Source of the DNA: an uncultured Methanoregulaceae archaeon
GTDB lineage: Archaea; Halobacteriota; Methanomicrobia; Methanomicrobiales; Methanospirillaceae
Reading direction: 5' to 3'
Assembly: GCA_963705255.1 (NCBI GenBank)
Contig: OY970061.1
Location: forward strand, 256,001-320,000
Length of the DNA: 64,000 nt
Each line of letters starts with the position of its first letter. Positions within the stretch are counted from its first letter, which is position 1. The notes under the pieces were generated by a model. It was not told the DNA's origin. It made no database searches and was given only the letters and a program-made list of their open reading frames with translations. This document shows, one piece after another, positions 46,451-64,000 of this stretch. The position numbers and the translations under genes were made by a program.

Positions 46451-46730
46451 GACGGTGCTCCGGGAGGTTGCACTTGGATAATTTGTGTGAATCCGGATGG
46501 CTCAGGCGGGATCCATGAACAAAACCTTGTCTGGATATCAATGGGAGGGCTCCCCGCCTCAGGGCCCCTCACGGGGCACGGCGGGGCAAGTACGGAAACA
46601 GAGAACCTGATAATTGCCCAGCCGCGACCCGACGAGGCGTCGCGGCGACCCCCGAAGGGGGTGGGGATGCTCACAAATGCCGCAGATGAATCCGGGAACC
46701 TCTCTGTTTGGAGCGACCAACCAACCGGGT
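46451..46730. mobile_element. 280-bp non-coding insertion flanked by a 7-bp direct repeat GGATCAT
   Basis: GGATCAT at 46444-46450 and 46731-46737; removing it restores an ATGA mre11/rad50 overlap; internal GC hairpins such as CCCCGAAGGGG. Confidence 0.6.
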
Positions 46731-46733
46731 GGA

Positions 46734-47879
46734 TCATTCAGCGTCCTCCTGGTGTTTTTCCATGGCGGCCTGGATGATTGTACGGCCGTGCGAACTGACA
46801 AACTCTTTCTGTTTTACCGAATACTTCTGCTGTTTTTCGACGAACGCAGAAAATTCCTGCAGGTAGTCGATCATCCGGATGTCCTGCTGGAGCGGGACCG
46901 GCCGGTCCTCCTCCTCCGACTTCACCCGGATCTTCAGGTCGAGGAGGCGCTCGCGGACACCGACAAGGTCTTTCGTGTCGATCCCCTTCCCGTGCTCCCG
47001 CGAGAGCCCGTCGAGCGTCACCTGCGCCATCGCGTACTCCGGCAGGTTTTTGTTTTTTACCCGGGCGATGATCTCCCCCGTGATATCCCCGGGGTGGACG
47101 CCTGAACACCTGACTGTCCCGAGGTCCGCCATCGGCGTCTTCGGGAGTTCGAGGTGCCGCACCTCATGCCTGCCCGGGTCCACGAGAAGCCCGCCCTTCT
47201 CGTCCGCGATTTCGCCGTAGGTGAGGTACTCCGTGGAGCCCGAGTACCAGCTGTTGTCCGTGATCCGGCACTGGCGGTGGTAGTGGCCGAGCGCGATGTA
47301 ATCGAAACGGTCGGAGAGGATCGTATTGTCCAGCTCGTGCTCCGCGACTGTGGCTAATCGTTTGTCTTTTATCTGCGTGGCGAGGCCGTGGGTCACAAGG
47401 ACGTTGTGGTGTTTGCCGGAGAGCTCGATCTCATCGTAGGCTATGCGGTAGTCTTCCGGTCTCAGCATATTGGGGATCAGGTGGAAGAGCGTGTCGCCGA
47501 GTTCTGTTTTTTCGTACCGGAATTTGTATGCGGCCGTGATCTGTGATTTGTGGTACGTCAGGACTTCGAACGGCGAGGTCGTGTACCGGGTCTTGACCAT
47601 GCTGTGGTTGCCGGCGATTATCACCAATGGTATGCCGGCTGCGTGGAGGCGTTCGAGTGCTTCTAAAACTGTTGTATAAGCTTTGGTCTTCGGTTTGACG
47701 GTGTCGAAGAGGTCGCCGGCGTGGACGAGGACGTCGGGTTTCTGGGGGATGATGACATCTATCGCTGACAGGAAGTTGTCGTAAATTTGCTTCTCGCGGA
47801 GGTTCATGCCGGACTCGGGATCAAGTCTATTGAAGGCAGCGAGGCCGAGGTGGGTGTCGGCGATATGGATGAGTTTCAT
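46734..47879 (-). CDS. mre11: Mre11 nuclease
   Basis: IADTHLG, AGDLFD, AGNH, THG, ALGHYH, YSGS. Confidence 0.93.
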   Translation of the reverse strand: MKLIHIADTHLGLAAFNRLDPESGMNLREKQIYDNFLSAIDVIIPQKPDVLVHAGDLFDTVKPKTKAYTTVLEALERLHAAGIPLVIIAGNHSMVKTRYTTSPFEVLTYHKSQITAAYKFRYEKTELGDTLFHLIPNMLRPEDYRIAYDEIELSGKHHNVLVTHGLATQIKDKRLATVAEHELDNTILSDRFDYIALGHYHRQCRITDNSWYSGSTEYLTYGEIADEKGGLLVDPGRHEVRHLELPKTPMADLGTVRCSGVHPGDITGEIIARVKNKNLPEYAMAQVTLDGLSREHGKGIDTKDLVGVRERLLDLKIRVKSEEEDRPVPLQQDIRMIDYLQEFSAFVEKQQKYSVKQKEFVSSHGRTIIQAAMEKHQEDAE

Positions 47880-48249
47880 TTTGGTTATGGAGTATGTGGA
47901 TTTTTCTTGAATATAAGGGGGAGGGGGAGAGAGTGAAACTAAAATCCCGGGCTTGGATTTTATGGAACCCAGGTCTTTCCGCCTATAGCGGGATTAATAT
48001 TTTCCGGGTGCTTATATCTCCTTACTATCATGAGCACGAAAGCGAGAATTACGGGAGTTCCCAGGACTCCTGTCGTGGCACCACGCACGAAGACCCGGTC
48101 AGTGCCGGACCGTGATGAAGAGGTGCACCTCTCCCCGGTCCAGCGGATGCGGGGAAAGATCTCTCTTTCGGATCCGGAAATGGTCCGCCGTATTATTTTT
48201 GATCCGTCCCTGGAGTCGTGACCGATGGTTGCGGGGTCCGGGAGTGACG

Positions 48250-48547
48250 CGACCATTTTCATTGATGCAAATATTTGCGACCAGGACAATCCGCTACACA
48301 CGGTGTAGCCAATTTCCTCCGGAGGGATCTCTTCCTTGCAGCAGCCACGGGGGAAGACAAGGAAAAACTGACGGAAGTTCCTGAGGTTCGTGACAGAAAA
48401 ACCGCACCGGAATTCACGTCTTAATTGTGCACTCAGTGCGTGCACAATCTGTTCGCCGTACCCTGCACGGTTCTCTCCAAGAATTTCACGGCGGATCCGA
48501 ACACCGATCCGCTCCATCAAGTCCTTACAATCCCCGCTTCCGGACAA
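48250..48547 (-). pseudogene. DUF1016/YhcG N-terminal remnant
   Basis: RAGYGEQIVHALSAQL...GFSVTNLRNFRQFF...LSWS, then similarity is lost. Confidence 0.7.
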
Positions 48548-48654
48548 ACACTCCTAAATCCCAGCCAAAACACACCCGGTCTCCGTGGGCTCTGGTGACG
48601 GAAAATGTATGAGAAAAAATGCATGCGGGGATACATGGTCTTTAAAAGAGAACA

Positions 48655-49188
48655 TCACGATCCCGGTGAAATCCGCTGGAGAGCATTCTTGAGATCGAGA
48701 TAGAGCGGGACGGTTTCACCCGGAGTCCGGATTGCCTGTTTGAATGAGAATTTTTTATAGAACTCAACGGCACTGTGCTTTGAATCCACCGTAATGATAC
48801 GGCAACCGACATATCGGGAGAGTGTGATGGAGATGGTGAAGATCTTCCTCAGCATACTCCGCCCGACCCCGAACCGCTCATACTCACTGTGCGTTGCCAG
48901 CCGTGCAATCTTCAGGGCCGGATACTTCCGGAAATGATAACTCTCTTCGCGGTCACATTCTTCGACAGCCCTTACTTCGATGCTGTCGTTGATGAGGGTG
49001 AAGTACCCGACAAGGTTCCCCTTCCAGAAAACCAGCCGCGTCACAGAAATCAGGTTGTTCTGGTTAACGAGTGCGTCATCCTTTAAAAATTCATCAAGTT
49101 CCGGTTCAGATGAATGAAACCCGGACAAATCATGATCTGCGTCCAGAAGGATAAATTCAAGTTCTTCAAAAGGGATGGGGGAGAGCAT
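48655..49188 (-). CDS. GNAT acetyltransferase, toxin-type
   Basis: F.S...LDEFLK.DA, VGYFTL, PALKIARLA, ITVDSK..AVEFYKKFSF. Confidence 0.85.
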   Translation of the reverse strand: MLSPIPFEELEFILLDADHDLSGFHSSEPELDEFLKDDALVNQNNLISVTRLVFWKGNLVGYFTLINDSIEVRAVEECDREESYHFRKYPALKIARLATHSEYERFGVGRSMLRKIFTISITLSRYVGCRIITVDSKHSAVEFYKKFSFKQAIRTPGETVPLYLDLKNALQRISPGS

Positions 49189-49202
49189 TCTAAAAGCACG
49201 CG

Positions 49203-49353
49203 TCAGTCAAGCCCGGCATGCTCTGCGTCGCGCTTCGCTTCACGCATAAGGTTCAGGCCTTCACGGGTAAATGTCGGATGCTCTGAGTACCTTCTGAAAC
49301 GCTATTGCATCATCGCCTTCGAGCACAAGCCCGATCTCAATTGGTTTTGCCAT
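49203..49353 (-). CDS. small putative antitoxin upstream of the GNAT gene (apparent frameshift ~49290)
   Basis: Manual translation MAKPIEIGLVLEGDDAIAFQK|YSEHPTFTREGLNLMREAKRDAEHAGLD*; ends 14 nt before the GNAT ATG. Confidence 0.5.
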
Positions 49354-49462
49354 AAGCATCTTCTCCTGAATTTTTCGTTGTTTTATTATATGCTCAGGGA
49401 ATTATATCAAAGCTCTTGTGGAGGAGGTTGTCCGTCAGTACGATTTTGGATGCCTTGATTTC

Positions 49463-49786
49463 TCAGATCCCCATCTTCCCGGGCAGGTCCCGGGCCCAAG
49501 CCGCGATCGCTGCCGGGTCCTTCATAACTTTTGCAAGGCCGACGACGAACCCGGCGACCGGCACCTTCGCGAGGTCATTGCGGTGCTGTTTCACGAACTT
49601 CCCCACGTCGCCGACCATCCTCCCCATGTACATCGGCCCCCCGATGACGACCGCGTTGTATCCCGCGAGCGATGCGACCGTCCCCACCTCCGCGACGTCA
49701 GCGGTGTGGCCGGCGGCCTGCAGTTCCTTCCCGATCGCCTGCGCAATCTCTGCGGTCGATCCCGGTGCACCCGAAACCACCGACAC
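49463..49786 (-). pseudogene. flavodoxin (HemG-like) copy 1, 5'-truncated and internally deleted
   Basis: GSTAEIAQAIG...GGPMYMG...KDPA joined directly to AIAAWARDLPGKMGI. Confidence 0.8.
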
Positions 49787-49818
49787 ATTAATAATCCTAA
49801 TCGTGATTAGTCCTAATC

Positions 49819-51177
49819 ATGATTAGAGAGTTCATCGACCGGGAGGAGGAGCGCCTGCTGCTTGAGCATGAGTGGCAGAGTGCCGGCGGGAGGCTCATCA
49901 TCCTCTACGGCCGGAGGCGGATCGGAAAGACCCGGCTTATCGATGAATTTATCCGGGACAAGCCTGGCATACTCTATATCGCAGAGGACGCATCCCCGCA
50001 TATCCAGATAGCCCAGCTCAAGGCCCGGTGTGCGGAGTATTTTGGCGATCCTCTCCTCGCCGGGCTGGATATCAGGACGTGGGAGCAGCTCTTTACCTAT
50101 CTCGCACAAAAACCGCTCACCAGGAGGACGTACCTTGTGATCGATGAGTTTACGTACCTGATCCGGAACGACCCCTCCATTCTTTCTGCGCTCCAGAAAG
50201 CCTGGGACCGGAGTATCACCGGCTCCGACTGGTGCCTTCTCCTCTCCGGGTCGATACTCTCGCTCATGAGTGATCTTGCCCTCTCGTCCACATCCCCGCT
50301 CTATGGCCGGAGGACGCGTGACCTGCTGCTCGGGCCGCTCCGGTTCTCCGATGCGAGAAAGTTTTTCCATTTCCCGTTCTCTGACACCCTGAAAGTGTAC
50401 CTGTCGATCGGAGGTGTGCCGGAGTATCTTCTCAAGGCTGGCGCGTATGAGGATTGCAACTCATTTTACAAAACCGAGTTTTTCAACCGGTACGGGTACT
50501 TTTACCACGAACCGTACTTTATCCTCTCGCAGGAGTTCCGGGAGCTCGAGGTGTACCAGTCCGTCCTCCACGCGGTTGCGCTTGGCAACACCGCCCCGAC
50601 AGCGATCGCCCAGTTCTGCGGTCTCGACACCCGCCATGTGTACCCGTACCTCGAATCCATGATCCGGCTGGGGCTCGTGGAAAAAGAGGTGCCGCTTCTG
50701 GGTAATCCACGGCAGGGGATATACCGCATCCGGGACCGGGTCTTTGATTTCTGGTACTGCTATGTGTTCCCTCGCAGGCAGGAGATCGAGACGGGGCATC
50801 CCGGTTCCGTACTCCCGGACATCAACCCGTTCTTCGGCAGGCAGTTCGAGGCGTTCGTGCGGGACGAGTACGCCGGGGTCGTTCTGGCGGGATACCGTAC
50901 CGGCCACTGGTGGTATAAGGAGGACGAGATCGATCTCGTGGCGGTCGACGATAATTCATCTACCGTTATCTTCGGTGAATGCAAATGGGGGGATGTCAGT
51001 CTTCAGCAGGCTAAAAAACTCCTCGCCCTCTTAAAAACAAAGTCAAAGCTCGTGCGTGCCGACAATTACCGCCACCGGAAGTACGCGCTGTTCTCTGCCG
51101 GGACAATTGAAGGGAAGGCCCGGTTGCGGGACGATGGCTATCTGGTTTTTGACAGCACTGACTTAGAAGGATTCTGA
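49819..51177 (+). CDS. archaeal ATPase with DUF234-like/PD-(D/E)XK C-terminus
   Basis: FIDREEE, GRRRIGKT, IDEF, SPLYGRRT, GGVPEY, EIDLVA...GECKW. Confidence 0.9.
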   Translation: MIREFIDREEERLLLEHEWQSAGGRLIILYGRRRIGKTRLIDEFIRDKPGILYIAEDASPHIQIAQLKARCAEYFGDPLLAGLDIRTWEQLFTYLAQKPLTRRTYLVIDEFTYLIRNDPSILSALQKAWDRSITGSDWCLLLSGSILSLMSDLALSSTSPLYGRRTRDLLLGPLRFSDARKFFHFPFSDTLKVYLSIGGVPEYLLKAGAYEDCNSFYKTEFFNRYGYFYHEPYFILSQEFRELEVYQSVLHAVALGNTAPTAIAQFCGLDTRHVYPYLESMIRLGLVEKEVPLLGNPRQGIYRIRDRVFDFWYCYVFPRRQEIETGHPGSVLPDINPFFGRQFEAFVRDEYAGVVLAGYRTGHWWYKEDEIDLVAVDDNSSTVIFGECKWGDVSLQQAKKLLALLKTKSKLVRADNYRHRKYALFSAGTIEGKARLRDDGYLVFDSTDLEGF

Positions 51178-51421
51178 TGAATCCTTCACGTCCTCGATAT
51201 TCTGATGAACATCTCTGACTTCGAAGAGTCCTGACGGACTCTTCCTGTCCTCGATATTCTGATGAACATCTCTGACTTCGAAGGATTCTGATGAATCCTT
51301 CACGTCCTCAAATCCTGCTGCACTCGATTTTTCTGAACTCGAAGGATTCTGATAAATCCTTCACGTCCTCGAATTTCGCTGCGCTCGATTCTTCGGATAT
51401 AGAAGGATTCTGATGAATCCT
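51166..51421. repeat. tandem array of five hairpin units (57-61 bp period)
   Basis: GAAGGATTC-TGAT-GAATCCTTC units at 51166, 51223 (variant), 51280, 51341 (one stem mismatch), 51402 (truncated). Confidence 0.9.
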
Positions 51422-51455
51422 GAGAATGGTGCGGTCCCGCAGCCGCTCCCCCGTT

Positions 51456-51713
51456 TCAGATCCCCATCTTCCCGGGCAGGTCCCGGGCCCAGGCCGCGAT
51501 CGCCGCCCAGTCGCGGAAGTCCCCGACCGGGGATTTTACTTTCTTGGTGATCCAGTTCTGGAACCACGAGAGTTTTTCAGGGTCCAGCCTGCCGGCGAAC
51601 ACGGTCCGGGCAACCGGCTGCAGCGGGGCGAGGGCGTCACGGAGTGCCTTCTCCGAGGCCGCGATCCCTGTCGGGTCCTCTGCACTATTGCGGCCGGTGA
51701 ATTCCCTCAGCAT
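51456..51713 (-). pseudogene. flavodoxin copy 2, 3' half only
   Basis: FAGRLDPEKLSWFQ...GDFRDWAAIAAWARDLPGKMGI; 3' end near-identical to copy 1. Confidence 0.8.
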
Positions 51714-51775
51714 CCGCGATTTTTATCCGGGTTGTCGTTTGCGTAGAAAAAAAGAGTGAGGTTTACGATTGGACT

Positions 51776-52234
51776 CTAGAGAAGATCTTCGATCTTCCGG
51801 ATCAGGACCTCCGCATGGCGGATCGCGGATTCCGCCTCCGTTTCCGAAATGGAACCGGCCGTATCATAGACCGAGCTGTGGCGCTTGCGTCGCATCCGGT
51901 CGAAGATGACTGCATCTTGGTTATCCAGAAAGAGCTCAGCGAATTTTACAACGGAGATGTGCTGGTTCGCACCGTCCGGGCGGTACCCTTTGGAAAACAT
52001 CAGTGCCCGGCCGGCCTGAAGAACTGCGTTATACGCGATGGTGTATGCCCAGTCATGATCCGTAGTGAGGATTGTGCGTGCTGTGCTGAGATCACGGTGG
52101 GCCAGTGCAATCGCATCCTTCACTTTTTTTCTTTCGGGACCGAGCCTTTTGATCAGGCCCTCCCGTTCAAGGAGTCGAAGACCTTCGTCTTCTCCTCTCT
52201 CATCCCTTCGGGATTCGGGATCTTCAATCATCAC
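51776..52234 (-). CDS. HEPN domain protein (toxin of an MNT-HEPN pair)
   Basis: AYNAVLQAGRAL, RRKRHSSVY; overlaps the upstream MNT gene. Confidence 0.85.
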   Translation of the reverse strand: MMIEDPESRRDERGEDEGLRLLEREGLIKRLGPERKKVKDAIALAHRDLSTARTILTTDHDWAYTIAYNAVLQAGRALMFSKGYRPDGANQHISVVKFAELFLDNQDAVIFDRMRRKRHSSVYDTAGSISETEAESAIRHAEVLIRKIEDLL

Positions 52235-52787
52235 AGGCTCCGCTTATCATGATCTTCTCTTCCTGCATTACATTCCTTACGAATGGATCCTTGTCCTTCT
52301 TCCGCTTTGTAAATTCCCGGGCGGTCATGAGCGTGTAATTGATCTCCCGGCCGGTGGCACGCTCGCAGGAATGGATGATGGGGATGAGCCGATCCTCCTC
52401 CACCGTTCCCACGATGAAGAGGTCGATGTCGCTTTTTTCACCGGCGGTCCCCTTTGCAAACGACCCATAGATGAAGACGCACGTGATCTCCTCACCGGCA
52501 ATGGCGTCCCTGATGATGCCGGCAACCCCTTCTGTCTTCAGCACGATCTTCTGGAGATCAGGATACAGGAAATGGCCGGTATTGACCGTGTAATACTGCT
52601 GGTTTCCTTTCTTCTGACCGGTAATGAGGCCGAAGGATTCGAGGTTTGCGAGCTCCCGGCGCACCGCATTGATATTCTCGGATGTCGTGCGGACGATCTC
52701 GCGGATGTAGAATTCGCTCCCCGGGTTGAGCAGGAAGAGCATGAGGAGCTTCACCCGGGTTTTTGATGAGATGAGCGCTTCCAGCAT
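52224..52787 (-). CDS. wHTH + minimal nucleotidyltransferase (MNT) antitoxin
   Basis: N-terminal HTH (YIREI..NAVRREL); IYGSFAKG...SDIDL. Confidence 0.9.
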   Translation of the reverse strand: MLEALISSKTRVKLLMLFLLNPGSEFYIREIVRTTSENINAVRRELANLESFGLITGQKKGNQQYYTVNTGHFLYPDLQKIVLKTEGVAGIIRDAIAGEEITCVFIYGSFAKGTAGEKSDIDLFIVGTVEEDRLIPIIHSCERATGREINYTLMTAREFTKRKKDKDPFVRNVMQEEKIMISGACDD

Positions 52788-52869
52788 GAATACATAATGT
52801 ATTCAATTGAGTAAAAAATGTATTCATTGCCCGATTCATGTCCCGGTACTTATGAGCGGTTTTCCCCTT

Positions 52870-53355
52870 TTTCACGCTCCCATCTTCCCAGGCAGCAATC
52901 GCGGCCCAGTCGCGGAAGTTGCCGACCGGGGATTTTACTTTCTTCGTGATCCACTTCTGGAACCACGAGAGTTTTTCCGGGTCCAGCCGGCGGCGAACAC
53001 GGTCCGGGCAACCGGCTGGAGCGGGGCGAGGGATGCATGGAGTGCCTTCTCCGCGTTTGCCATCGCTGCCGGGTCCTTCGAGACCGCCGCAAGGCCCACG
53101 GTGAACGCGGCGACCGGCACCTTCGCCAGACTATCGCGGTGCCGTTTCACGAACTTCCCGACATCCCCGACCCATCCTTCCCATGTACATCGGCCCACCG
53201 ATGACGACCGCGTGGTAGCCCGCGAGCGATGCGACGGTCGCCACCTCCGCGACATCTGCAGCGTGGCCGGCGGCCTGCAGTTCCTTTCCTATCGCCTGCG
53301 CAATCTCAGCGGTCGATCCGTTCTTCGATGCGTAGGCTATGAGGATGTGGGACAT
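52870..53355 (-). pseudogene. flavodoxin copy 3, near full length but frameshifted with an altered 3' end
   Basis: MSHILIAYASKNGSTAEIA... continues across ORFs 53131-53355 and 52935-53255. Confidence 0.8.
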
Positions 53356-53585
53356 GGTTTTTCACTTAATTGAAAATTGTGTGTTGGAGGGGATAAGGGT
53401 GGGGGGGTGTTGGAAAATAAATTGTGTTAACGATTCATGTTGAAATCATGTTGAAAAAATGTCGCGAGGTAGTCCTATGACTATGGAAAAACACTGGATA
53501 ACTCATAACTCAATAATCACTTTCACGCAACTCAAACTGAATAACTAAATTAAGTGACGTATCCAATAGATCCTGAGGTTGGGTA

Positions 53586-54624
53586 TTGAGTCCAAAAGAG
53601 ATCTTTTTTCAAAATGATCGGGTTCTTATTATAAATGATAGTATTTTCGAAACCAAACTTATCAAACCCGACTCTGTTGATCTGGTTGTGACATCGCCCC
53701 CCTATAATGTTGATATCAAATATAATTCGCACGATGATCAGATATCTTACGAAAAATACAAAGAGTTCAGTAAAGACTGGATGACCTGCTGCTACAAGTG
53801 GCTCAAAGATGATGGAAGATTCTGTCTGAATATACCTCTCGATAAAAATAAAGGTGGCCAGCAGAGTGTTGGTGCCGATTTAACAACGATTGCAAAAAAG
53901 ATCGGTTTTAATTATCATTCTACTATCATCTGGAATGAAGGAAATATTTCACGACGGACTGCCTGGGGTTCATGGTTGAGTGCTTCTGCACCCTACGTGA
54001 TTGCACCCGTTGAATTAATTGTCATTTTGTACAAAAAATACCTGGAAGAAGACAAGCGGTTCTCAAGAATCAGATATTTTACGACAGGATTTTTTGGATT
54101 GGACCAATGGGCTCTGGTCTTTTAGCGGAGAGAGTAAAAAGAAAATCGGACACCCTGCACCGTTCCCTGTCGAATTGCCAAAGCGATGTATGAAATTATT
54201 CAGTTTCAAAGGAGATACGGTTTTAGATCCTTTCCTCGGAAGTGGAACAACCCTTGTTGCGTCTTACCTCAATGACCGGAAAGGAATTGGAATTGATATC
54301 GATCCTCACTATTGTCAGATTGCGCTTGATCGTCTGAAAAAAGAAGGCGGAATGGGACAGACCAGCATCTCACAATACTTCACACAGCCCAAAACAAAAC
54401 CAAAAAGCAAGAAAACCGGCTTAACCCAAACGGATATTATTTTCCAATATTTCAAAGATCATCCATCACGATCCGTTACCTATGATGATGTCGGAGAATG
54501 GATCAAACAAGAGAGTGAAAAAAATTCTGTTATGGAAATCAAAGCTTTTGAAAAAATTATGAGGACTCTGGCAAAAGAAGGAAAAATTACCAAAATTGAC
54601 AAAGGCCTTTTCAAATACGAATAA
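53586..54624 (+). CDS. beta-class N4/N6 DNA methyltransferase with C-terminal wHTH; apparent frameshift at ~54035
   Basis: VTSPPYN, WNEGNISRRTAWGSW, HPAPFP, LDPFLGSGTT; split at an A6 run. Confidence 0.92.
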
Positions 54625-54734
54625 CCCGAATTGATTGCTACCCGGGCTTGTCTTTTTTCAATTAGGTTTATTTTAGTATAAATATAAACAAAGGTTTCTG
54701 ACAGAGTATTCATTCCACGAGATGGTGTCAAGCA

Positions 54735-55325
54735 ATGCCCGAACGAACTCAAAATCAGGAGCGCCAAGCATCCGTGAGCAGGGAAGGTGCAAAATTTGAA
54801 TTATATGTGAAAAATTCCTTGAATGATTCGTTTACCACTCAAAAGCAAAATATCCGAATATTGAATGGAAATGAAGTTTTCAAGGACCCGCATCTCAAAG
54901 ACCATTTTACAATACCTGTTCGGGGATTCAACAAGAACTGGGGTGATGTGGATCTCGTTGCAAAAGATCTTGACACCAATCATCCTATCGCATTAATTAG
55001 TTGTAAATTGAGTCTTCATGGACGGTTTTCTGAAACTCTTTTCTACTCGAAGATATATCGTGATAAAATACCTGATTTGAAAGTAGTTTTCGCAACACCG
55101 GATAAAGGAAGGCAGAGCCAACCCGGCATTTGGAAATCCGAATGGGGCACAACTCCAAACCCAACAAAAGATCGTGCTTTTGCGGAAACATTTCTCGATG
55201 GGGTTTACATTGATAATGAATATCGGATAAGTGAATGGGGATTAACTGGAGCGACCGTTCTTGGTGGAAAAATTAAGCCATTCGCTCAATTGGCCGGAGA
55301 TATTGAAAGTTGGAAAATTGTTTGA
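54735..55325 (+). CDS. putative type II restriction endonuclease (PD-(D/E)XK variant)
   Basis: GAKFE...GDVDLV...ISCKLSLHGR; directly downstream of the MTase. Confidence 0.75.
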   Translation: MPERTQNQERQASVSREGAKFELYVKNSLNDSFTTQKQNIRILNGNEVFKDPHLKDHFTIPVRGFNKNWGDVDLVAKDLDTNHPIALISCKLSLHGRFSETLFYSKIYRDKIPDLKVVFATPDKGRQSQPGIWKSEWGTTPNPTKDRAFAETFLDGVYIDNEYRISEWGLTGATVLGGKIKPFAQLAGDIESWKIV

Positions 55326-55447
55326 TAATCCATCTACAGACGAACATCTTATCAGTTTTTTAACCATTCTTCGAGTTCAGAATAACAATTTTTATTACCA
55401 AAATTTTTCAGAAATTATAATGTCATAGGAAACTCACAGTCAATGCA

Positions 55448-56323
55448 ATGGTAAATTTCGAAAACTGGTTTTTCAAATACAATACTTGGTCGTACAGCAA
55501 GCACCGGCTTTTTGATTTATGTAAAAGAAATTTTTATTACCGCTATATTGGGACTGCTCTAAAAGAGTCCACTGATTTCGATACTTATAAATTAAAACGG
55601 CTGAAGGACCTTAATTCAAAATATGCGTTAGAAGGACTATTGATCCATGGCGTTATCGAAAATCAGATTGGACAACATTACCTCGGAAGAGATCTGAACG
55701 AAGGTGGAGCAAAATCTCAGTTTGTCCAAAGAGTTGAGCAATACCGAAAAACGGCATGCGATATGATAACTGAATTTTTTAATGGACTTCCTAAAGATGA
55801 TGAATTCTTTGACAGAATTAGAGCCGAAGGCCAGGATAAAATTAGCATGTTTTTTGGTGTTATCTGGCCCCAATTAAAAGATCTCGAATACCTGAAACAT
55901 GAAGATTTTGACAAATTCAAAATCAACGACGTGGAAGTTACTGTCAAAGTGGATTATGTTAGCAAAACAAAAAATGATATAATTGTACTTACGGACTGGA
56001 AGACTGGCCAAGATAATGAAGAATATGAAAGTGATCTGCAGATTGGGACTTATGTACTCTGGGCGATGCAATATTATCAGAAAACGCCAATACAGATTCG
56101 AAATGAGCTTGCCTACTTGAAAACTGGCATGATGCGACAGACTGAATTCAACGACGAAGTTTTGGAAACAATTAGAAAAAAGATTGTCGACGATTTCGAG
56201 CAGATGAATTTGAATTATGAGATGAACAATTATCCTGCCTCTCCAGAACCTCGTAAATGCATTAGCTGCCAGTTTGGGACTGTTTGCCCGGAATCTAAGA
56301 TTAAAGATTATTTAAAAGGGTGA
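55448..56323 (+). CDS. Cas4/AddB-like PD-(D/E)XK nuclease with four-Cys Fe-S motif
   Basis: WSYSK...CKRNFYYRY, G.LIH, VKVDYV, LTDWKTG, Q...Y, CISCQFGTVC. Confidence 0.88.
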   Translation: MVNFENWFFKYNTWSYSKHRLFDLCKRNFYYRYIGTALKESTDFDTYKLKRLKDLNSKYALEGLLIHGVIENQIGQHYLGRDLNEGGAKSQFVQRVEQYRKTACDMITEFFNGLPKDDEFFDRIRAEGQDKISMFFGVIWPQLKDLEYLKHEDFDKFKINDVEVTVKVDYVSKTKNDIIVLTDWKTGQDNEEYESDLQIGTYVLWAMQYYQKTPIQIRNELAYLKTGMMRQTEFNDEVLETIRKKIVDDFEQMNLNYEMNNYPASPEPRKCISCQFGTVCPESKIKDYLKG

Positions 56324-56327
56324 TTTT

Positions 56328-58958
56328 GTGGATAAAAAAATGGAAATTTTGATCATATTTGCAAATATTTCTGAGAACAAGACCACAATCTCTTTAGACT
56401 CCTTGAGTAATATCCGACTTATTCTGAGTTTATTTCAAGAAGAAATAATCTCTGACGATGAATTCAATCAAGAACTTGAAAATCTTATTGAAGAGGGTTA
56501 TTTATCGAAATCTAGATCGGAAGAATTCGAAGTTACTCCACGTGGTCTCGACAATAGTCAAATCTATTGGAAGAACCCTTCTAGGCGAATCAGAGTATGA
56601 TCGATTAACACATTCTATTTTAGATTATACGAATTCCAAAGGAAAGCCTAAATATATTAGAATGCTTGGGGATCGCCTTAATAAACTTCAGCAGGCGAAA
56701 GCAAATAAGACGAGAAATGTTGATCCGAATTCCGTCCATCCGCTAGGAATTTTAATAAAAATTCAACACAATATAGAGCAACTTTTCACCAGCGAATTTA
56801 ATCTCATTGCTGATCATCTAAAAGATAATAAAATCTTTGAGAACGAAAAGAAAAACTTGCAAAACAAACTTTCTCGTCAGTATAACATTCCAATAATTGT
56901 TTTGCGATCTGGAAATACTCTTCTTGTAACAGGTCCGATCAGAATTGAATCGATTTCATTTTTCAACACAATTCTATCATCTGTAAAATGTTATCCGACT
57001 GAACGAAGGAAAATACCACAATGGAATAATGTAATTTTATATCATTTCGTTGAGAAAGCATTAAGAAAAATTGGGTTTTTACCTTCTGGACAATTTACCT
57101 TCACGAATTATTCAAACTGCAAACAGCATGAAGAAAACTCCGGTTATTTAGAATGTGATGCAATAAAATTGAGTTTCATCGACCTCAAGAACGACACGGT
57201 TTTTGTTTTCGTCGAATCATATCAGTCAATTCTTCATTCTTTACTTCAATTCATAGCTGTAAATTTAAAAAGTGGAACATCAAGAGATGCGATCATCGAT
57301 AAGATCAAAAAATTAAAATTGAGAGTAATTCCCTTTGGGAGGAGAATTAATTTTATAGATCTTGCCTGGGATAAAGATTTGAGTCATGAAAAAATCCCAG
57401 ATAGCATGAAAACATACTGTGAATACTGGGAAGACACACATGGGATTCTAATATCTCAAATAATTCAACCTATTATCATAACTCAAGCCTTCAACCGATC
57501 ATTATCCTATCCAGCCGAAATGATAAATATCGACAAACTTTCTATTGAACAGGCTTACGGGAATGTTCCAAAACGAAAGCCGAGATATGAGGACCTAGAT
57601 GAAAGATTTAATAAAATAAAATATCTCTCTAGTTTCAAGTCATATCGTGATGAAAATACAGAAAAATTTTTTAAATTGAATATTATCGAAAACTCTCCTT
57701 CTCTAAAAACGTTGATTGATCTAAACGGATTTAAAGGAACGGTTCAGATTTCACCACCATTATTGGAATTTTCAAGAGGGGCGTTTAGTATTGATCCTTT
57801 GGATGTCTTTAATCATGAATTTGGACCTGTTTGCGGGAAGAAAAATCTTGTAATCACTCATATCCTTACTCACGTGTCTATTAGTGACAGACAAATTGAT
57901 ATTTTCTGTGACGCAATAAGTCGAGCATTTAATATTTTTAATTTTGGCACAATAAGCAAGAATCCAGGAGCAAAAATAAAAAAATTCGATTCGATAACGA
58001 ACCTCAATGCTCTTGAAAATAAAGTCCGTGAATTTGAACCGTTAAACAATTCCAATGCAATTGGAATTGCAATAATTCCGGATGACTCGTCATTTTATTA
58101 CTCGTTAAAAAATATGTTTCCTGTCAAAACTGGTACGAGACTTCAAATTGTTAAAATGTCATCATTCGATAAAATAATTTCATCTAATTTTCCGGGTATG
58201 AAGCTTCTCAGCTCTAAATATTTTTATTAAAGCATTGAAAACAAATGAAGCCGTATGGACATTAGCAACATCTGCGGGGTCTCTCGAAAGAAAAATCCTT
58301 ATTCTTGGGTATTGGTTTCAGTCAAAATCCGTATGAAGGTAAAATCAGTAAATGCGCTACAGTGATGCATGACTCCCACGGAGCAAAAATAACTTGGAAA
58401 GTGTTTGCAACCCCCCAACAAAAAAGAACAATCGATGTAATTTGGTTTGATAATTTATTAACAAGAATCCACGATATCGTCGATTCTGAAAAACCATCTC
58501 GAATCGTTTGTTATCGAACTGGAGAATTGTTCCCAACGGAAATGGATGCCTTAAAAATTGCAATAAAAAAATGTCAATGGCTTGATTCGATAAAATTATC
58601 ATTTATTTCAATAATTGATGCATCGAATTGCCGGTTTTTCAAAAGAAATGATAGAAAGTTGAATCTACCGGCGGGATATGGAATAATAATTAATGACAAA
58701 GAAGCTTTTCTCTCCACATCAAATTATGATAGTCGTGGGTTGCGGCAGGGAACTGTGATGCCAGTTCGAATAAAAAATGAACTTGGTGATGATCTGATAA
58801 CAAATATCCTCATGGAATACCATGACCTGACCTACCTAAACTGGCAAACTCCATTTACTACTGCAAAACATCCACTGGTTGTAACAATTGCAAATCGCTT
58901 TGCGGAACTCACGAGAGAAGGAGTGCCCACGGAGAACACATTTTATTTGGATTTATGA
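56328..58958 (+). CDS. ago: long prokaryotic Argonaute, predicted catalytically inactive, apparent N-terminal wHTH; apparent frameshifts at ~56575, ~58209 and ~58280-58308
   Basis: PAZ TYCEYWEDTHGI...QPII...YPAE; MID YYSLK, LQIV, LNIFIK..VWTL; PIWI GIGFS, YRTG, QGTVMP, LTYLNW, HPLVVTIAN. Confidence 0.85.
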
Positions 58959-59912
58959 CGGTCACAGTAATTTCAGACGAAATAATATCAGCCTTGTCAA
59001 CTCTGGCACCCTCAATAGATCCAGCAAAAGCAAAATTGGAGATAGATCCAATTTCAATCGAATTCTCAAATTTTTTCAGCTGAACCTCTTGGATTAATCG
59101 TAATTGAATTTATCCAAGAAACCGTGAAAGATGGAAACTATTCATTTTTAATTCCAAATAAGTGTCCGGATAGAAAAGAGTTCGATAGAATAATTTATTC
59201 ATTGTACTCCCAAAAGAGACATGAAAAATTATCTTACTTGCTGGATATTTACCATTTTTTCTGGATTAAACACCCGGATATAGAAACAAGTGCATTATTC
59301 GATTCTCTAAAAAAAATCGAGGAATCGAGAACAATAATTTCGAAAAAAACTATTCTCAAAATTTGTTCAGAATGCTCATCAGATTCTCGCGATAATCCAT
59401 GTTGTAAATCGACAGATCGAAATCTCCTTGAAATTACGGATTGTTCATTACATGAAAATGTTGGGGCAGTTATCCGTTTCAACCAACATATGGAGATTTA
59501 TGTAAAAAACCAATTGAACAAATCAGGCATAAAAACAGTTGGTTGGGAAAAGGAACGATATGGAAAAGAAATCTGCACAAGTGTAACATATCATTGTGAC
59601 GGTGAACCAATTGAGATGGATACAATCGGTATCTCAACACCTCTTGCAGTATTATTAATCGAAGTAAAGACAGCGAAGAATACTTCCATGAATGAAATTA
59701 GAAAGACGGAAAATAAGTTTGAATCGATAATTTCCAAGATCAATAAGATCTCTAATCGAACAATCCCCTTTTTAAAAATTTTTGTTACGAGCGGCGAATT
59801 CGATCCGAATCTACCAATAAAAGCATACCAGAGAAAAAATTGGGATTTTATTGACAGATCAAAGGTTACGAAAATAAACGAAGAGTTTGAGAAAATTAAA
59901 AAATCACTTTAA
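58955..59912 (+). CDS. Argonaute-associated Zn-ribbon + PD-(D/E)XK (Mrr/NERD-like) nuclease; apparent frameshift at ~59075
   Basis: ATGA overlap with the ago stop; MTVTVISDE...; removing one T from a T-run joins ORF 59124-59912 (CSEC, EMDTIG...LIEVKT). Confidence 0.7.
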
Positions 59913-59960
59913 TTATTTGAGTTTGACACAGGTTACATTAAAAATTAATTTTATTGATCA

Positions 59961-61547
59961 TTAAATGTCGTAGACGCCTGAATCGGGGACAGAGAACTCG
60001 GCGTTTGCACCGTTATAAAATGAGATATCTTCGTCTTTGAGAATTTTGAAAAATGGATCTTCCTCAAGAATTTCTTCCGAAGCAATCAACCATCCCTTAT
60101 TCACGGCTTCATATGCTAATAGCCAATGATCATCATATAACTGTTCTTTAACTAAGAACTTCATCCAAATATTCTCGTTTAAATCATCTTTTATTAATCC
60201 GATATTTCTCATGTCCAACGCAATTAGGGCTACTATAGGATTGTCATTTTTCGAAAGAATTTCTGAAACATCATTTTCCATTACAAAATTCATTTCTTTT
60301 GCCAACCACAATGCCCAAGCGATTTCAAAATCATTTGAATATTTGCTATGGAACCGGATCAATTCAGAAATCGTCTCTCCAATTCTATCGATTTTTCCTT
60401 CATAATTAATATCTTTGAGACGCAACAAAATTTCTACAACGTTTGGAATGCACGAGCTTTGAACTTGCATCGATTTCAACAACAACGATTCAAATAATGG
60501 AATATTATCATCAAATATTTTTTTATTTCTAACGCGTATAATCCCATATTTTAAAACAAAATCGTCAGGAAATAATGCACAATACTCATTCACTCGACTG
60601 AAATAATTTATGAGATCCGTTTTTTGAGTTTTAATATTATTCGAAGAATTCTCAGGAATCCTAAAATTAAATTGTCGAATACCGGGTACCCATATGGGTT
60701 CCAATATGTGTGGGACTTCGCATATTTTTATTTTACTGGGGTTCACCTCTAATTCAAAATTTTTTAAAATTTTTTGTAATTTGGTGAGAGCTTCTTCGGC
60801 TACATATAAATCTTGAAAAAAAAGGAAATAATCGTCAATAATCCGAATTCCTTTTAATGGTTCATTCAATTGTTTTTCTAATTCAATATCTACTGCAGTA
60901 GCAATTATCTCCGCTACTATCACAGAAGAATCCGGTCCGATTGGAATCCCAATTGTCTGTCCGTCTCTAGTTCCTCTCAAACATCTATCAAGATCATTTC
61001 CAAAAAGAGATCGATTATTACGTTCACGTTTAGCAATTGCTTTGCCATGAAGTGCCCAAGCTATACTATGAGTATAGATTGTATCATAATACCTCGAAAT
61101 ATCCGCCCTCAACATATGTCTAAATTGGGTGGATCTTAAAGCAATTTCTTGCTCAAAATTTACCTTATCTTTAACAACATCGAAAGAACGTTTTTGTTTA
61201 TCTCTAATAATTGGAAAACAAGGTCTTGATATTGAGATAGGAGACTTTTTTACATGATCCTTTATTTTATCCCAATTTTTTTCAATATAATAACAAAGCA
61301 TCAATTGATAAAATGGGTTTGGAATTGTCAAATTTCGTCGAAGATTTTTAACTCTGGGAACTGAAAATAAACAACTTTTGGATCCTGGTATATTTTTTTT
61401 TGATTTTTTAGTCCATTGTTTAATAGATCTCTCTAATTCGCTCAAAGGTAACAAATTCATTTTTTCTGCAAGATCATTGGTTTGAAAAGGAGGTGGAACT
61501 TCAACGGGGAAATACCCCCAATTAATAAGATCCTTTGCTGTGAGCAT
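59961..61547 (-). CDS. AbiK-like (UG/Abi class 1) defence reverse transcriptase with helical C-terminus
   Basis: GYFP..PPPF, RR...IPNP, DISRYYDTIYTHSIAWA, GIPIGP, RIIDD, HWLLAYE. Confidence 0.88.
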   Translation of the reverse strand: MLTAKDLINWGYFPVEVPPPFQTNDLAEKMNLLPLSELERSIKQWTKKSKKNIPGSKSCLFSVPRVKNLRRNLTIPNPFYQLMLCYYIEKNWDKIKDHVKKSPISISRPCFPIIRDKQKRSFDVVKDKVNFEQEIALRSTQFRHMLRADISRYYDTIYTHSIAWALHGKAIAKRERNNRSLFGNDLDRCLRGTRDGQTIGIPIGPDSSVIVAEIIATAVDIELEKQLNEPLKGIRIIDDYFLFFQDLYVAEEALTKLQKILKNFELEVNPSKIKICEVPHILEPIWVPGIRQFNFRIPENSSNNIKTQKTDLINYFSRVNEYCALFPDDFVLKYGIIRVRNKKIFDDNIPLFESLLLKSMQVQSSCIPNVVEILLRLKDINYEGKIDRIGETISELIRFHSKYSNDFEIAWALWLAKEMNFVMENDVSEILSKNDNPIVALIALDMRNIGLIKDDLNENIWMKFLVKEQLYDDHWLLAYEAVNKGWLIASEEILEEDPFFKILKDEDISFYNGANAEFSVPDSGVYDI

Positions 61548-61652
61548 TAATGAGTATTCAAATCAAGCAAGGAAAATACTATCTTTTTTTATTTTGCTTT
61601 CAGTAATCAAACAGAGACCCATGTTGCTGTGATCCTCAAATCCCCGGAGAAA

Positions 61653-61910
61653 TTATTCCCCTTTCCCTTCAATAATCGCGATAACTTTCTTTCCGGTATC
61701 AGTTATCCGGTAATATCGGCCCGTGTGTTCATCCGGTGTCAGGCATTCAACGAGGCCCTTTTCGGTAAGTTCAATCATGACTCTGCTGATCGTAGAGCGG
61801 TCCATAACCAGTTGTTTGGCGAGATTCGTTGGCGAGTTGGGTTTATGAAGAGCTTTAAGCACCAGTCTCCTGGTCTTCCCTCTACCGACAAAACTCACAA
61901 GGTCAAACAT
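61653..61910 (-). CDS. small wHTH transcriptional regulator upstream of the RT
   Basis: SPTNLAKQL..DRSTISRV..EL.EKGLV...YRITDTG. Confidence 0.85.
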   Translation of the reverse strand: MFDLVSFVGRGKTRRLVLKALHKPNSPTNLAKQLVMDRSTISRVMIELTEKGLVECLTPDEHTGRYYRITDTGKKVIAIIEGKGE

Positions 61911-62060
61911 TTAATGAAAAATGGGGTGATTATTGTGATGAATTTGCGTAGTGATGATGTTGTACTGATGTGGTAAATTTTATCGCCTTCCCCGGCCAAT
62001 ACCTACTCCGGTGCCTGGTGAACATAAATCGAATAAATGTGGATGTGAAAATATCCCGGA

Positions 62061-62220
62061 GCGGTCACCCCCGGCTGTAAACTTTGTTCCGACCTGGAAC
62101 ATTGTCGCTCCGCAGGTGCTTCACCAGACACCGCATCGGGGAGATTCTTCGTCAAGGATCTCCCCAATTTTAGAGTAATTCGAAGAACTCCTACGAGTTC
62201 TTCTCATCCTCTCATAACCT
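62061..62220 (+). repeat. structured direct repeat, copy 1
   Basis: GCGGTCACCCCCGGCT...TGTTCCGA..GGAACA.TGTCGCTC...CCAGACACC shared with 63252-63435. Confidence 0.8.
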
Positions 62221-62662
62221 CATGGCTATGAGAGTGCTCCCAAATAACCCCGGTACGGCCCCGGATTCCCTGTTTTTCCGGAGACAGAGACAGTAATTCC
62301 GGAAAATGAGACAGTAATTCATGCATTTCCGGTCATTTTTACACCTGAAACCATGAGACGCTATTTGGGTGCATTTGGACACGAAAAAGAGGGTGGATCG
62401 GGTTTCAGCCCGTCTTTGCATATTTTCTGGAATGGAAGAGGCTTCCTGATGATTATGGGGGGTGTCGCGATTTTACGTCGGAGAAGGGATACCTTAAGAG
62501 TACTATCCCCCCGGCAGAGCCCCCTCCGGCGATCACCGGCGCAGGAGTGCCCTGCCACTCTCAACCGCGATGGCAAAAACACATGAGCCAATGTGAGTCC
62601 GGTCCCCACAACAGGCCGGGCAAAAAATGGAAAATAATCGGAAGATGTAAAATACGTTTTTG

Positions 62663-62881
62663 TTATTCAGCCTGGACTGCAACGAATGTTGCCGATGAAT
62701 GGGATTTTGGGACTGGCATACCATCCTCAATAAGCCCGCGGATATGCATCTCGATCGCTTCATGCATCCGCTCTTCCGTTTCCTCGCGGGTTTTTCCGGT
62801 TGCAATACAACCAGGAAGATCCGGAGAGTATGCCGAAAAATTCTTTCCGGCTTTTTCAATTACAATCAGGAACCTGTGCAT
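62663..62881 (-). CDS. hicB: HicB antitoxin (short form)
   Basis: AYSPDLPGCIATGKTREE...EAIEMH. Confidence 0.88.
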   Translation of the reverse strand: MHRFLIVIEKAGKNFSAYSPDLPGCIATGKTREETEERMHEAIEMHIRGLIEDGMPVPKSHSSATFVAVQAE

Positions 62882-63123
62882 TGTATGATCATTCCTTGAA
62901 TTTCTGAAGAATTGAGCATAGCGAAATTCGAAGACGAGAAGAGTTCATAAGAACTCTTCGAAGGTTCTTGCTTAGAGATACTGTTCATCGTACCGGGGGC
63001 AAGATCATCTGAAAAGTGTCCGGCAATGGTGACCCGTCCGGATTTTTCCTTATGCTTGTACTGACGATGACTTCCCTTCGATGCAACACTATACCATCCA
63101 TCATCCTCGATTAATTTGATCAT
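62866..63123 (-). CDS. hicA: HicA toxin; 3' end altered by a hairpin-repeat insertion, usual MKVRE start reads CTG
   Basis: IEDDGW...KGSHRQYKH..K.GRVTIAGH...L.PGT.NSI.KQ. Confidence 0.8.
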   Translation of the reverse strand: MIKLIEDDGWYSVASKGSHRQYKHKEKSGRVTIAGHFSDDLAPGTMNSISKQEPSKSSYELFSSSNFAMLNSSEIQGMIIQCTGS

Positions 63124-63251
63124 CTCGCGGACTTTCAGGATGGATCCTCCGGGTGGTTGTTGATCAGTCTTTGTTGTTGTTGCTCATTAGGTTTTTCTGC
63201 CAGTTTCTTTAAAAAGAGATTTGGCTGGTTTGCAATCGTCCATTGTGCCCT

Positions 63252-63435
63252 GCGGTCACCCCCGGCTTTCAACATATGTTCCGATCCGGAACAGTGTCGC
63301 TCATCAGGGACTTCGCCAGACACCAGGACGTTGGGGGATTTTTCGTCGGAGATCCCCCGCCTTTTCAGGGTACTCTCCTGTCCCTTGCGGGAAGCAAGAG
63401 TAGTTAGAAGAATCTGATGATTCCTCTCACAATCA
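63252..63435 (+). repeat. structured direct repeat, copy 2
   Basis: Homologous to 62061-62220 with hairpins conserved. Confidence 0.8.
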
Positions 63436-63537
63436 AACTCCAACGATAAGATGGGAGAAGCCAGGCCGACCTTCAACTTCGGAGAATTCCGATGCGATAC
63501 GGGGAAGTGATGAAAACGGGGAGTTGACAGCTGCCTG

Positions 63538-64000
63538 CTATTTCTCCCCGCTGATCATCCGTACCGTTGCTTCCTTTGTCAGCAGGGTCATCTGGTGAAT
63601 TGCAATCGCGTTCAGTTTTTCCAGGCGCTCAGGCTGGGACAGTTTGTCGCTGATGAAATGTGCGTTGAGGTTCTCGAGATTCGATAAACACACGAGTTGT
63701 GAAATGTCCGCATAATCCCGGATATTTCCTTTCTTCCCCGGGTTCCTTTCCCTCCACTCCTTTGCGTTCATGCCGAACAACGACATATTCAGGACATCGG
63801 CTTCGGAAGCATAGATCGCATTGATCTGCGGTTTTGTCAGCAGGGGAGGGATAAGGTTCTCCTGCACGGCATCAGTATGGATCCGGTAATTTATTTTTGC
63901 AAGGTTCCGGCGGATGTCCCATCCAAGACTTTTCCGCTCCTCTTCCTTGAGACGCTGGAACTCCTTGATGAGGTAAAGCTTGAACTCGACCGAGATCCAT
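63538..64000 (-). CDS. KilA-N domain-containing protein, C-terminal part (5' end outside the window)
   Basis: WISVEFKLYLIKEFQRLK...KINYRIHTDAV.ENLIP...YASEADVLN...GNIRDYA...SNLENLNA. Confidence 0.8.
   Translation of the reverse strand, partial: WISVEFKLYLIKEFQRLKEEERKSLGWDIRRNLAKINYRIHTDAVQENLIPPLLTKPQINAIYASEADVLNMSLFGMNAKEWRERNPGKKGNIRDYADISQLVCLSNLENLNAHFISDKLSQPERLEKLNAIAIHQMTLLTKEATVRMISGEK

Follow-up and report, generated by a model that had tools for sequence, protein, structure and literature searches.

A recurrent operon joins a slicer-deficient long Argonaute to a Cas4-like nuclease and a probable Card1-like nuclease

Introduction

What can an Argonaute that has lost its slicing residues do when it is encoded between two nucleases? 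The question is raised by a locus in the genome of an uncultured Methanoregulaceae archaeon (GenBank assembly GCA_963705255.1), where three co-oriented genes lie side by side in a 64,000-nucleotide stretch of contig OY970061.1 (positions 256,001 to 320,000 of the forward strand; this whole stretch is called the window below, and positions are counted from its first letter). In order, the genes encode a Cas4-like nuclease, a long prokaryotic Argonaute (pAgo; gene ago) and a third protein, for which we use the name gene 3. An earlier note, made from the letters of the sequence, had proposed that the Cas4-like enzyme generates guides, that an inactive Argonaute senses targets and that the downstream nuclease kills or degrades DNA. 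Here we follow up that proposal by computational analysis.

How inactive Argonautes acquire their guides, and how they tell invader from self, are unsettled matters in the field. To our knowledge, the known systems built around an inactive Argonaute pair it with one effector only. That inactive pAgos can have nucleases as effectors is firmly established: BPAN systems have a long-B pAgo gene upstream of a PD-(D/E)XK nuclease gene in a simple operon of two to three genes, and in EcBPAN of E. coli the target-bound Argonaute recruits the nuclease via its N-terminal domain, relieves its autoinhibition and activates its C-terminal domain (passages in PMC10620215 and PMC13535254). According to the relevant part of PMC10620215, all characterised inactive pAgos use 5′-phosphorylated RNA guides, and EcAgo acquires its RNA guides without its nuclease. 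Cas4-family genes beside pAgos, inactive ones included, are also already in print. The best described is ACE1, a Cas4-family enzyme that binds active cyanobacterial pAgos at their MID-PIWI lobe and that processes and trims their small interfering DNA (siDNA) guides; for some ACE1 and ACE2 genes the co-encoded pAgo is of the long-B or short type (sections of PMC12094033). An inactivated long pAgo of Dehalococcoides is mentioned among the neighbours of Cas4-family genes in a passage of PMC2743648, and orthogroups og_56 and og_60 of PMC6299218, as far as its consulted part goes, comprise Cas4-family genes beside pAgos.

Results

The order of the three genes is conserved between archaea and a bacterium

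The three genes of the window are tightly coupled. In the open reading frame (ORF) listing for positions 53000–62500, 4 nt separate the stop of the Cas4-like gene (56323) from the GTG start of ago (56328), and an ATGA at 58955–58958 overlaps the ago stop with the start of gene 3; the coordinates in the earlier note were exactly these. That note had called the trio an operon, and the claim is borne out both by this coupling and by the gene order at other loci. A pattern scan of the GTDB species genomes matched 76 stretches, one of which was confirmed, in a Methylomonas metagenome-assembled genome (MAG); the same kind of scan of JGI metagenomes matched 283 stretches and confirmed 12. A neighbourhood search of this sort had been proposed in the note, and Argonaute homologues were found together with both nucleases. 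At each of the seven loci where the 5′ end of ago is complete (L001–L005, L007, L009), the Cas4-like gene is immediately upstream, and gene 3 is immediately downstream at each of the eleven loci that extend past ago (L001–L008, L010, L012, L013). Start and stop codons within the trio mostly overlap or lie no more than 15 nt apart. The loci stem from archaea and from a bacterium, the Methylomonas MAG, and because the order recurs in independent loci from both domains the arrangement is not due to chance.

The trio is rare and horizontally acquired. Across 300 further genomes from the host's order, a profile of the Argonaute found nothing at E ≤ 1e-10, and the Piwi gene of the window is the only one in the host genome. 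GC content is low at every trio locus (34–39%); in the window the trio has 34%, against 58% for the remaining window and 54.6% for the whole genome. In a plasmid collection free of phages, a single weak Piwi match was obtained, to a plasmid of Hydrogenophilus with 24% identity across 26% of the query, and gene 3 had no match in the same collection.

The Argonaute is a long form without the slicer aspartates

The central protein is a long Argonaute of the N-PAZ-MID-PIWI type, in which the 5′-phosphate pocket is kept and the slicer aspartates are lost. Since ago is interrupted in the deposited sequence (see below), domains were also analysed in P0009, an intact 871-residue public protein from another assembly. 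Pfam Piwi matches P0009 at 1.6e-18 (67.4 bits, cut-off 28.9; profile positions 5–299 of 302) and the window fragment at 6.3e-14, and the PADLOC pAgo model PDLC02436 matches the MID-PIWI half at 3.2e-39. An AlphaFold model of P0009, with a mean predicted local distance difference test score (pLDDT) of 66.8, gave 258 Foldseek matches at E ≤ 0.001, headed by hAgo2 (1.5e-24), PIWI-clade proteins and CbAgo. In VIA-align, residues 127–806 of the model span residues 35–790 of hAgo2. The MID domain (model residues 490–636) aligns with that of hAGO2 at Z 14.2 with a root-mean-square deviation (rmsd) of 2.7 Å over 128 residues, and the PAZ domain (299–401) with that of Hiwi1 at Z 13.2, rmsd 2.4 Å, with 101 of 107 residues aligned. 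Pfam PAZ itself stays under its cut-off (2.5e-04 and 7e-04). Residues 1–126 form an extra N-terminal part with a helix-helix-helix-strand-strand order, for which the winged-helix family HTH_45 gave a sub-threshold match (0.0044).

In a hidden Markov model (HMM) alignment to Drosophila Piwi, the G of GIGFS and the T of YRTG sit on the first and second catalytic aspartates (GFD and YRDG), and the motif IA(N/D/E)RFA covers the fourth tetrad position, which is N, D or E across the family and N (IANR) in the window; the glutamate finger could not be placed in this alignment. The DEDX tetrad of slicing Argonautes is thus absent, with both aspartate positions replaced, and the G, T and N that the earlier note had read at the positions it could place stand. 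So do the PAZ, PIWI and Y-K-Q-K MID pocket that it had named. Y, K and Q of the pocket align with Drosophila Piwi, and G658, T726, Y586, K590, Q602 and K630 (P0009 numbering) are invariant in 11 Argonaute sequences.

No solved Argonaute is close to the family in sequence (best E 5e-06 to 3e-05), and the solved short, long-A and eukaryotic ones are roughly equidistant from it (E 5e-06 to 1e-02); the C-terminal half of PIWI is nearest to short pAgos of the SPARTA/SPARSA type (5.2e-06). A lost tetrad together with a downstream nuclease is typical of long-B pAgos. These proteins reportedly have a reduced PAZ (PAZ*; Ryazansky 2018), whereas in the model the PAZ of the trio's Argonaute looks complete and resembles that of long-A pAgos more.

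The Cas4-like protein has a complete active site

The Cas4-like protein matches Pfam PDDEXK_1 (3.3e-18) and Cas_Cas4 (6.7e-06). Two PADLOC models of Argonaute-associated nucleases, both Aga_Cas4-like_Nuc, match it over its full length, at 2.2e-11 (profile positions 2–306 of 308) and 5.4e-11; the CRISPR Cas4 models of PADLOC cover its C-terminal half only. Its closest chain in the PDB is a remote one (9iac_A, 277 aa, E 0.035), which is probably an ACE1. Among eight homologues, C25, C271, C274, C280, D169, D183-W-K185, Q198 and Y202 are invariant. The protein has the D-DxK motif of the Cas4 family, one N-terminal cysteine and three C-terminal ones, and a section of PMC12094033 lists these features for ACE and Cas4 proteins. 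As judged from these residues, all catalytic and Fe-S-type positions are kept and the active site is predicted to be complete. The assignment as a Cas4-like nuclease in the earlier note is upheld by the conserved residues and by the full-length match to the Argonaute-associated models.

Gene 3 probably carries a zinc ribbon and a Card1-like nuclease domain

The family of gene 3 is very small: a full HMMER search of 1.84 billion representatives returned 54 proteins at E ≤ 0.001, 18 of them at E ≤ 1e-30. Members that are not fragments have 304–334 aa, and the homologues at related loci are read in a single frame of 316–322 aa. An alignment of 34 members shows a cysteine ribbon followed by an E...D...ExK nuclease core, in which E183 and D225 are invariant, C137, C140, C152 and S212 are nearly so, and ExK is the consensus, within LLLCExKT. 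Pfam Card1_endonuc (PF09002) matches 10 of the 34 (best 4.9e-06), with Mrr_cat, NERD and Hjc matching once each. The ribbon resembles the rubredoxin-like end of rubrerythrin (6.5e-04). The probable layout is an N-terminal helical domain, a Cys4 zinc ribbon and a C-terminal Card1-like PD-(D/E)XK nuclease domain, in keeping with the zinc-binding PD-(D/E)XK protein that the earlier note had predicted.

Other searches were less informative. The Protein Atlas gave scores of at most 0.90 for the 262-aa fragment of gene 3, with Card1_endonuc and NERD clusters as leads. A search of PDB sequences with the first gene-3 profile found zinc-ribbon noise only, and no CARF sensor domain was recognised in gene 3. 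For kinship with bAgaN, the BPAN nuclease (RecB2, og_15), no PADLOC, Pfam or NCBIfam model passed its threshold and none of the PDB sequence matches was to a nuclease associated with a pAgo, the presence of bAgaN in these libraries being unconfirmed. A complex prediction for gene 3 with an Argonaute's MID-PIWI lobe (P0002, residues 440–873) scored 0.00 (mark 0.32) and is neutral on binding.

The frame breaks are most likely assembly errors

In the deposited sequence ago falls into three ORFs (56328–56600, 56458–58230 and 58305–58958) whose frames run A/B/C/A. With full-length homologues as tblastn queries, the frame changes map to ~56546, ~58209 and ~58280, each a +1 shift, so that the third-frame stretch is the short one between the last two. 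Gene 3 is likewise split (58955–59083 and 59124–59912), with its frame change at ~59077, a break that the earlier note did not contain. Are these breaks real? One view is that all five single-base breaks, which lie within 5 kb in ago, gene 3 and a nearby methyltransferase gene, are genuine, and that the module is decaying and non-functional in this genome. The following evidence leads us to think this improbable.

We compared positions 53500–61600 with Logan contigs from four runs (X1–X4) of one freshwater-sediment metagenome study; Nextera-type adapter remnants at loose contig ends suggest short-read libraries. At every break site that they cover, the contigs lack exactly one base: at 54033 (X1, X2 and X4), 56546 (X1, X3 and X4), 58209 (X1 and X2), 58280 (X1) and 59077 (X1). 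The X2 contig begins at 58277 and is uninformative for site 58280. Otherwise the contigs are identical to the window bar one substitution and one in-frame TTT insertion. These are population variants, the TTT after 57625 in X1 and A>G at 58848 in X1 and X4. When the five read-supported extra bases are deleted, frames of 875 (ago), 318 (gene 3) and 345 codons (methyltransferase) open up; the earlier note had rejoined ago to about 875 aa, and its implied origin of the frameshifts in sequencing error agrees with the missing bases.

Public proteins point the same way. Searching 5.8 billion proteins with the largest ago fragment gave eight matches at E ≤ 0.001 among 8000 candidates scored; five of them have 873–879 aa, and full-length homologues overall have 871–879 aa. 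The 90% cluster of the window's Argonaute has eight members, of 629, 871, 624, 590, 89, 213, 630 and 199 aa. The 871-residue member, P0009, reads through all three break points of ago and is identical to the corrected window protein at 869 of 871 residues, so an intact copy exists.

Some observations speak against intactness. Two proteins from two other assemblies, P0001 (629 aa) and P0014 (630 aa), are free of the first ago break and end at the premature stop that the window has at ~58228. This leaves two readings of the extra base at 58209: a systematic assembly error that recurs, or a genuine polymorphism. The supporting contigs have a depth of 3–6 and come from a single study, possibly the source sample of this genome. 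Some related loci are themselves damaged: ago is disrupted by an insertion of the insertion sequence (IS) type, about 1 kb long, at L009 (6644–7609) and L011 (133–588), where the insertions encode a protein of the DDE-transposase helix-turn-helix type (HTH_Tnp_4, 1.7e-19), and L012 (8001–9189) is a truncated remnant of the last 137 ago codons and gene 3. At L012 no Cas4-like gene was found in the 8 kb upstream, which hold unrelated genes.

The character of the differences, however, fits indel error across the assembly. All five are insertions in the deposited sequence, and two of the sites read GG[T]CTC, two T[C]AGCT and one an A run; this looks like systematic miscalling of bases at certain motifs, perhaps tied to methylation. 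Completeness of the closed 2.60-Mb genome is scored at 89.5%, compared with 93–99% for the listed genomes of the same genus. Outside the read-compared part, a host flavodoxin-like gene (52935–53355, reverse strand) in the GC-rich flank of the locus is split into two overlapping ORFs, whose products cover positions 1–58 and 58–115 of Pfam Flavodoxin_5, probably by another assembly indel. We conclude that the breaks in these genes are most likely assembly errors. If so, real genes are interrupted in the deposited genome by erroneous single-base insertions, and the trio locus will be overlooked or misnamed by annotation pipelines.

The trio lies in a low-GC island with defence genes

The trio is part of a low-GC island of foreign, horizontally acquired DNA (Table 1). 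The host is a methanogen, as the earlier note had held, with mcrA present in its genome (6.7e-70).

Table 1. Genes of the island and their positions in the window
Feature	Positions	Strand	Remarks
Low-GC island enclosing the trio, the restriction-modification pair and the reverse transcriptase	53550..61600		34.9% GC vs 57.6% in the remaining window
N6/N4 DNA methyltransferase gene	53586..54624	+	345 codons after removal of one extra base (54033)
BsaWI-like type II restriction endonuclease gene	54735..55325	+	Pfam RE_BsaWI 1.7e-09
Cas4-family (RecB-like PD-(D/E)XK) nuclease gene	55448..56323	+	291 aa, unbroken ORF
Long prokaryotic Argonaute gene (ago)	56328..58958	+	GTG start; 875 codons after removal of three extra bases (56546, 58209, 58280)
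Gene 3	58955..59912	+	ATG start; ~318 codons after removal of one extra base (59077)
Drt4-like defence reverse transcriptase gene	59961..61547	-	Convergent with gene 3

The island opens with a restriction-modification (RM) pair, the N6/N4 methyltransferase and the BsaWI-like endonuclease (53586–55325, forward strand). The two methyltransferase fragments match Pfam N6_N4_Mtase at 2.4e-18 and 1.5e-24 over complementary ranges of the profile. At L002 a methylase occupies the equivalent relative position and is followed by an unrelated 203-aa ORF.

On the other side of the trio lies a reverse transcriptase (RT) that matches PADLOC Drt4 at 1.1e-170 and Pfam RVT_1 at 6.1e-10; against NCBIfam Drt4 it scores 238 bits, under the cut-off of 450. 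Such a Drt4-like RT adjoins gene 3 in the window, at L002 (8785–10404, reverse strand), at L010 (1410–1574, reverse) and at L013 (1257–2726, forward); it is convergent with gene 3 in the first three and co-oriented with it at L013. The three RT-bearing loci are the window's closest relatives with sequence past gene 3, and the distant loci have no RT. We read the RT as a travelling neighbour outside the conserved trio.

At the right edge of the island there is a gene for a small winged-helix regulator (61653–61910, reverse strand; HVO_A0261_N 2e-09, MarR-like). Directly outside, at 62276–62317, a 21-nt unit stands in two tandem copies that are 86% identical.

Could the trio serve something other than defence? 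It might work for a mobile element, in competition between elements or as an addiction device, or in DNA repair or replication processing, with the Argonaute as a targeting scaffold for two nucleases of the repair type. Cas4/RecB and NucS/Card1-like folds do occur in repair enzymes as well (the PDB matches include MGME1, an AdnAB-type helicase-nuclease and NucS), and the patchy distribution of the trio and the foreign GC content of the island would suit a mobile element. We nevertheless give this explanation a slim chance. No integrase was found at the island ends, nor convincing flanking direct repeats, and there are no tRNA genes in 45000–64000; the phage-free plasmid set yielded only the weak Piwi match described above. 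Genes of defence type accompany the trio in the window, and elsewhere type I RM genes do so at L007, L009 and L002, the last of which also has a TIR protein.

Discussion

The question posed at the outset can now be given a graded answer. Taking the gene order, the residues kept and lost and the island context together, we give an even chance to the reading that the locus encodes a defence module of three components built around an Argonaute, intact and acquired horizontally, which comprises guide supply, sensing and nuclease killing. On this reading the Argonaute would load short 5′-phosphorylated guides and recognise complementary nucleic acid of an invader without cutting it. Target recognition would recruit or de-repress the gene-3 nuclease, which would then degrade DNA, either that of the invader or collaterally, as bAgaN does in BPAN; we liken gene 3 to bAgaN because it lies downstream of an inactive pAgo and has an N-terminal domain followed by a C-terminal PD-(D/E)XK domain. 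The Cas4-like enzyme would act upstream in the manner of ACE1, processing DNA ends into guides or trimming guides bound to the Argonaute. Together, Cas4-like enzyme, Argonaute and gene 3 would form a self-contained unit of guide maker, sensor and effector. This division of labour, which is the one suggested in the earlier note, is plausible by analogy with ACE1 and BPAN.

Several observations weigh against this reading, in addition to the signs of decay and the low contig depth described above. The gene-3 fragments of the window and the L002 homologue match no Pfam, PADLOC or NCBIfam model. The structure model of gene 3 has a pLDDT of 70, with residues 193–233 under 50; its best Foldseek match is Card1 (6xl1_A) at E 1.5e-03 and a template-modelling (TM) score of 0.20, with none at E ≤ 0.001, and a wide VIA search peaks at Z 6.2 with unrelated folds tied. 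With results this weak, a nuclease fold for gene 3 is suggested, not established, by structure. The C-terminal part of PIWI (755–871) is also poor in the P0009 model (pLDDT < 50). Finally, all characterised inactive pAgos take RNA guides from the transcriptome unaided by their nuclease (as stated in part of PMC10620215), so a Cas4-like enzyme that processes DNA ends is not obviously needed.

The last point leads to a different view of the Cas4-like enzyme, which we consider unlikely, though less so than either decay or a role outside defence. Here the enzyme is no guide maker: the Argonaute would take guides from transcripts like RsAgo, EcAgo and the short pAgos, and the two nucleases would be joint effectors after recognition, or the Cas4-like enzyme would clear DNA nicked by gene 3. 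The RNA guides of all characterised inactive pAgos, and the loading of EcAgo without its nuclease, argue in its favour (PMC10620215, in the part cited above). The MID pocket of the Argonaute is of the common Y-K-Q-K type, and a complete Cas4-like active site fits either role. The apparently complete PAZ, unlike the reduced one that long-B pAgos are said to have, counts against this view. So does the precedent of ACE1, the sole characterised Cas4-family enzyme associated with pAgos, which processes and trims guides (PMC12094033, sections cited).

How does the proposed three-component module compare with known systems? It is closest in outline to BPAN, as that is described in the passages cited, in that the gene of an inactive four-domain pAgo directly precedes that of a PD-(D/E)XK nuclease, in which a non-catalytic N-terminal domain is followed by a C-terminal nuclease domain; in the trio, the ATGA overlap and the E...D...ExK core of gene 3 give just this arrangement. 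It differs in that gene 3 has a zinc ribbon and a probable Card1-like domain, shows no detectable sequence kinship to RecB2/og_15 in the libraries searched and has no match to the PADLOC Aga models; in that its Argonaute bears an apparently complete PAZ as well as an additional N-terminal domain and reaches the solved Argonautes at a best E of 2.9e-05; and in that the Cas4-like gene is always there as a third component. With APACE1, to judge from the same sections on ACE1, the trio shares a Cas4-family nuclease (D...DxK, four cysteines) in an operon with a long pAgo. The long-A pAgos of APACE1, however, keep DEDX and slice, which the trio's Argonaute is not expected to do; and in the trio the Cas4-like gene is upstream of ago with a second nuclease downstream, its product being very distant from 9iac_A (E 0.035). 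SPARDA and other short pAgo-nuclease systems, so far as the consulted descriptions go, likewise combine an inactive pAgo sensor with a PD-(D/E)XK-type nuclease and collateral DNA degradation, but the Argonaute of the trio is long, with N and PAZ domains of its own, an APAZ protein is absent and the nuclease is of another family. Lastly, with the CRISPR ancillary nucleases Card1 and Can2 gene 3 probably has in common a C-terminal PD-(D/E)XK motif of the Card1_endonuc type, whereas its N-terminal part is a helical domain and a zinc ribbon, and its partner is an Argonaute rather than type III CRISPR.

The earlier note had not known the architecture as a described system, and this holds in part. 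We found no description in the literature of an operon of Cas4-like gene, inactive long pAgo and second nuclease, or of the gene-3 family, though the family may be listed in supplementary tables, among them Table S1 of the paper on ACE and the operon orthogroups in Ryazansky 2018. The pairing of a Cas4-family gene with an inactive pAgo, by contrast, is in print (passages of PMC2743648 and PMC12094033), and PADLOC already has models for the Argonaute and for the Cas4-like partner. The trio is of real interest to the Argonaute field without making a new category.

The addition of a Cas4-family enzyme to an Argonaute-plus-nuclease pair would allow a direct test of whether guide supply can be hard-wired into such a system, and gene 3 adds a putative effector family, a zinc ribbon joined to a Card1-like nuclease, for which the current libraries of defence systems have no model. 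In its boldest form, which we regard as doubtful, the proposal is that a dead long Argonaute is programmed with DNA guides by its own Cas4-family nuclease and switches on a separate Card1-like nuclease, the whole being a 4.5-kb operon exchanged between archaea and bacteria. If the guides were indeed DNA, this Argonaute would be unlike every inactive pAgo so far characterised, and the operon would encode a complete innate pathway of guide biogenesis, sensing and killing.

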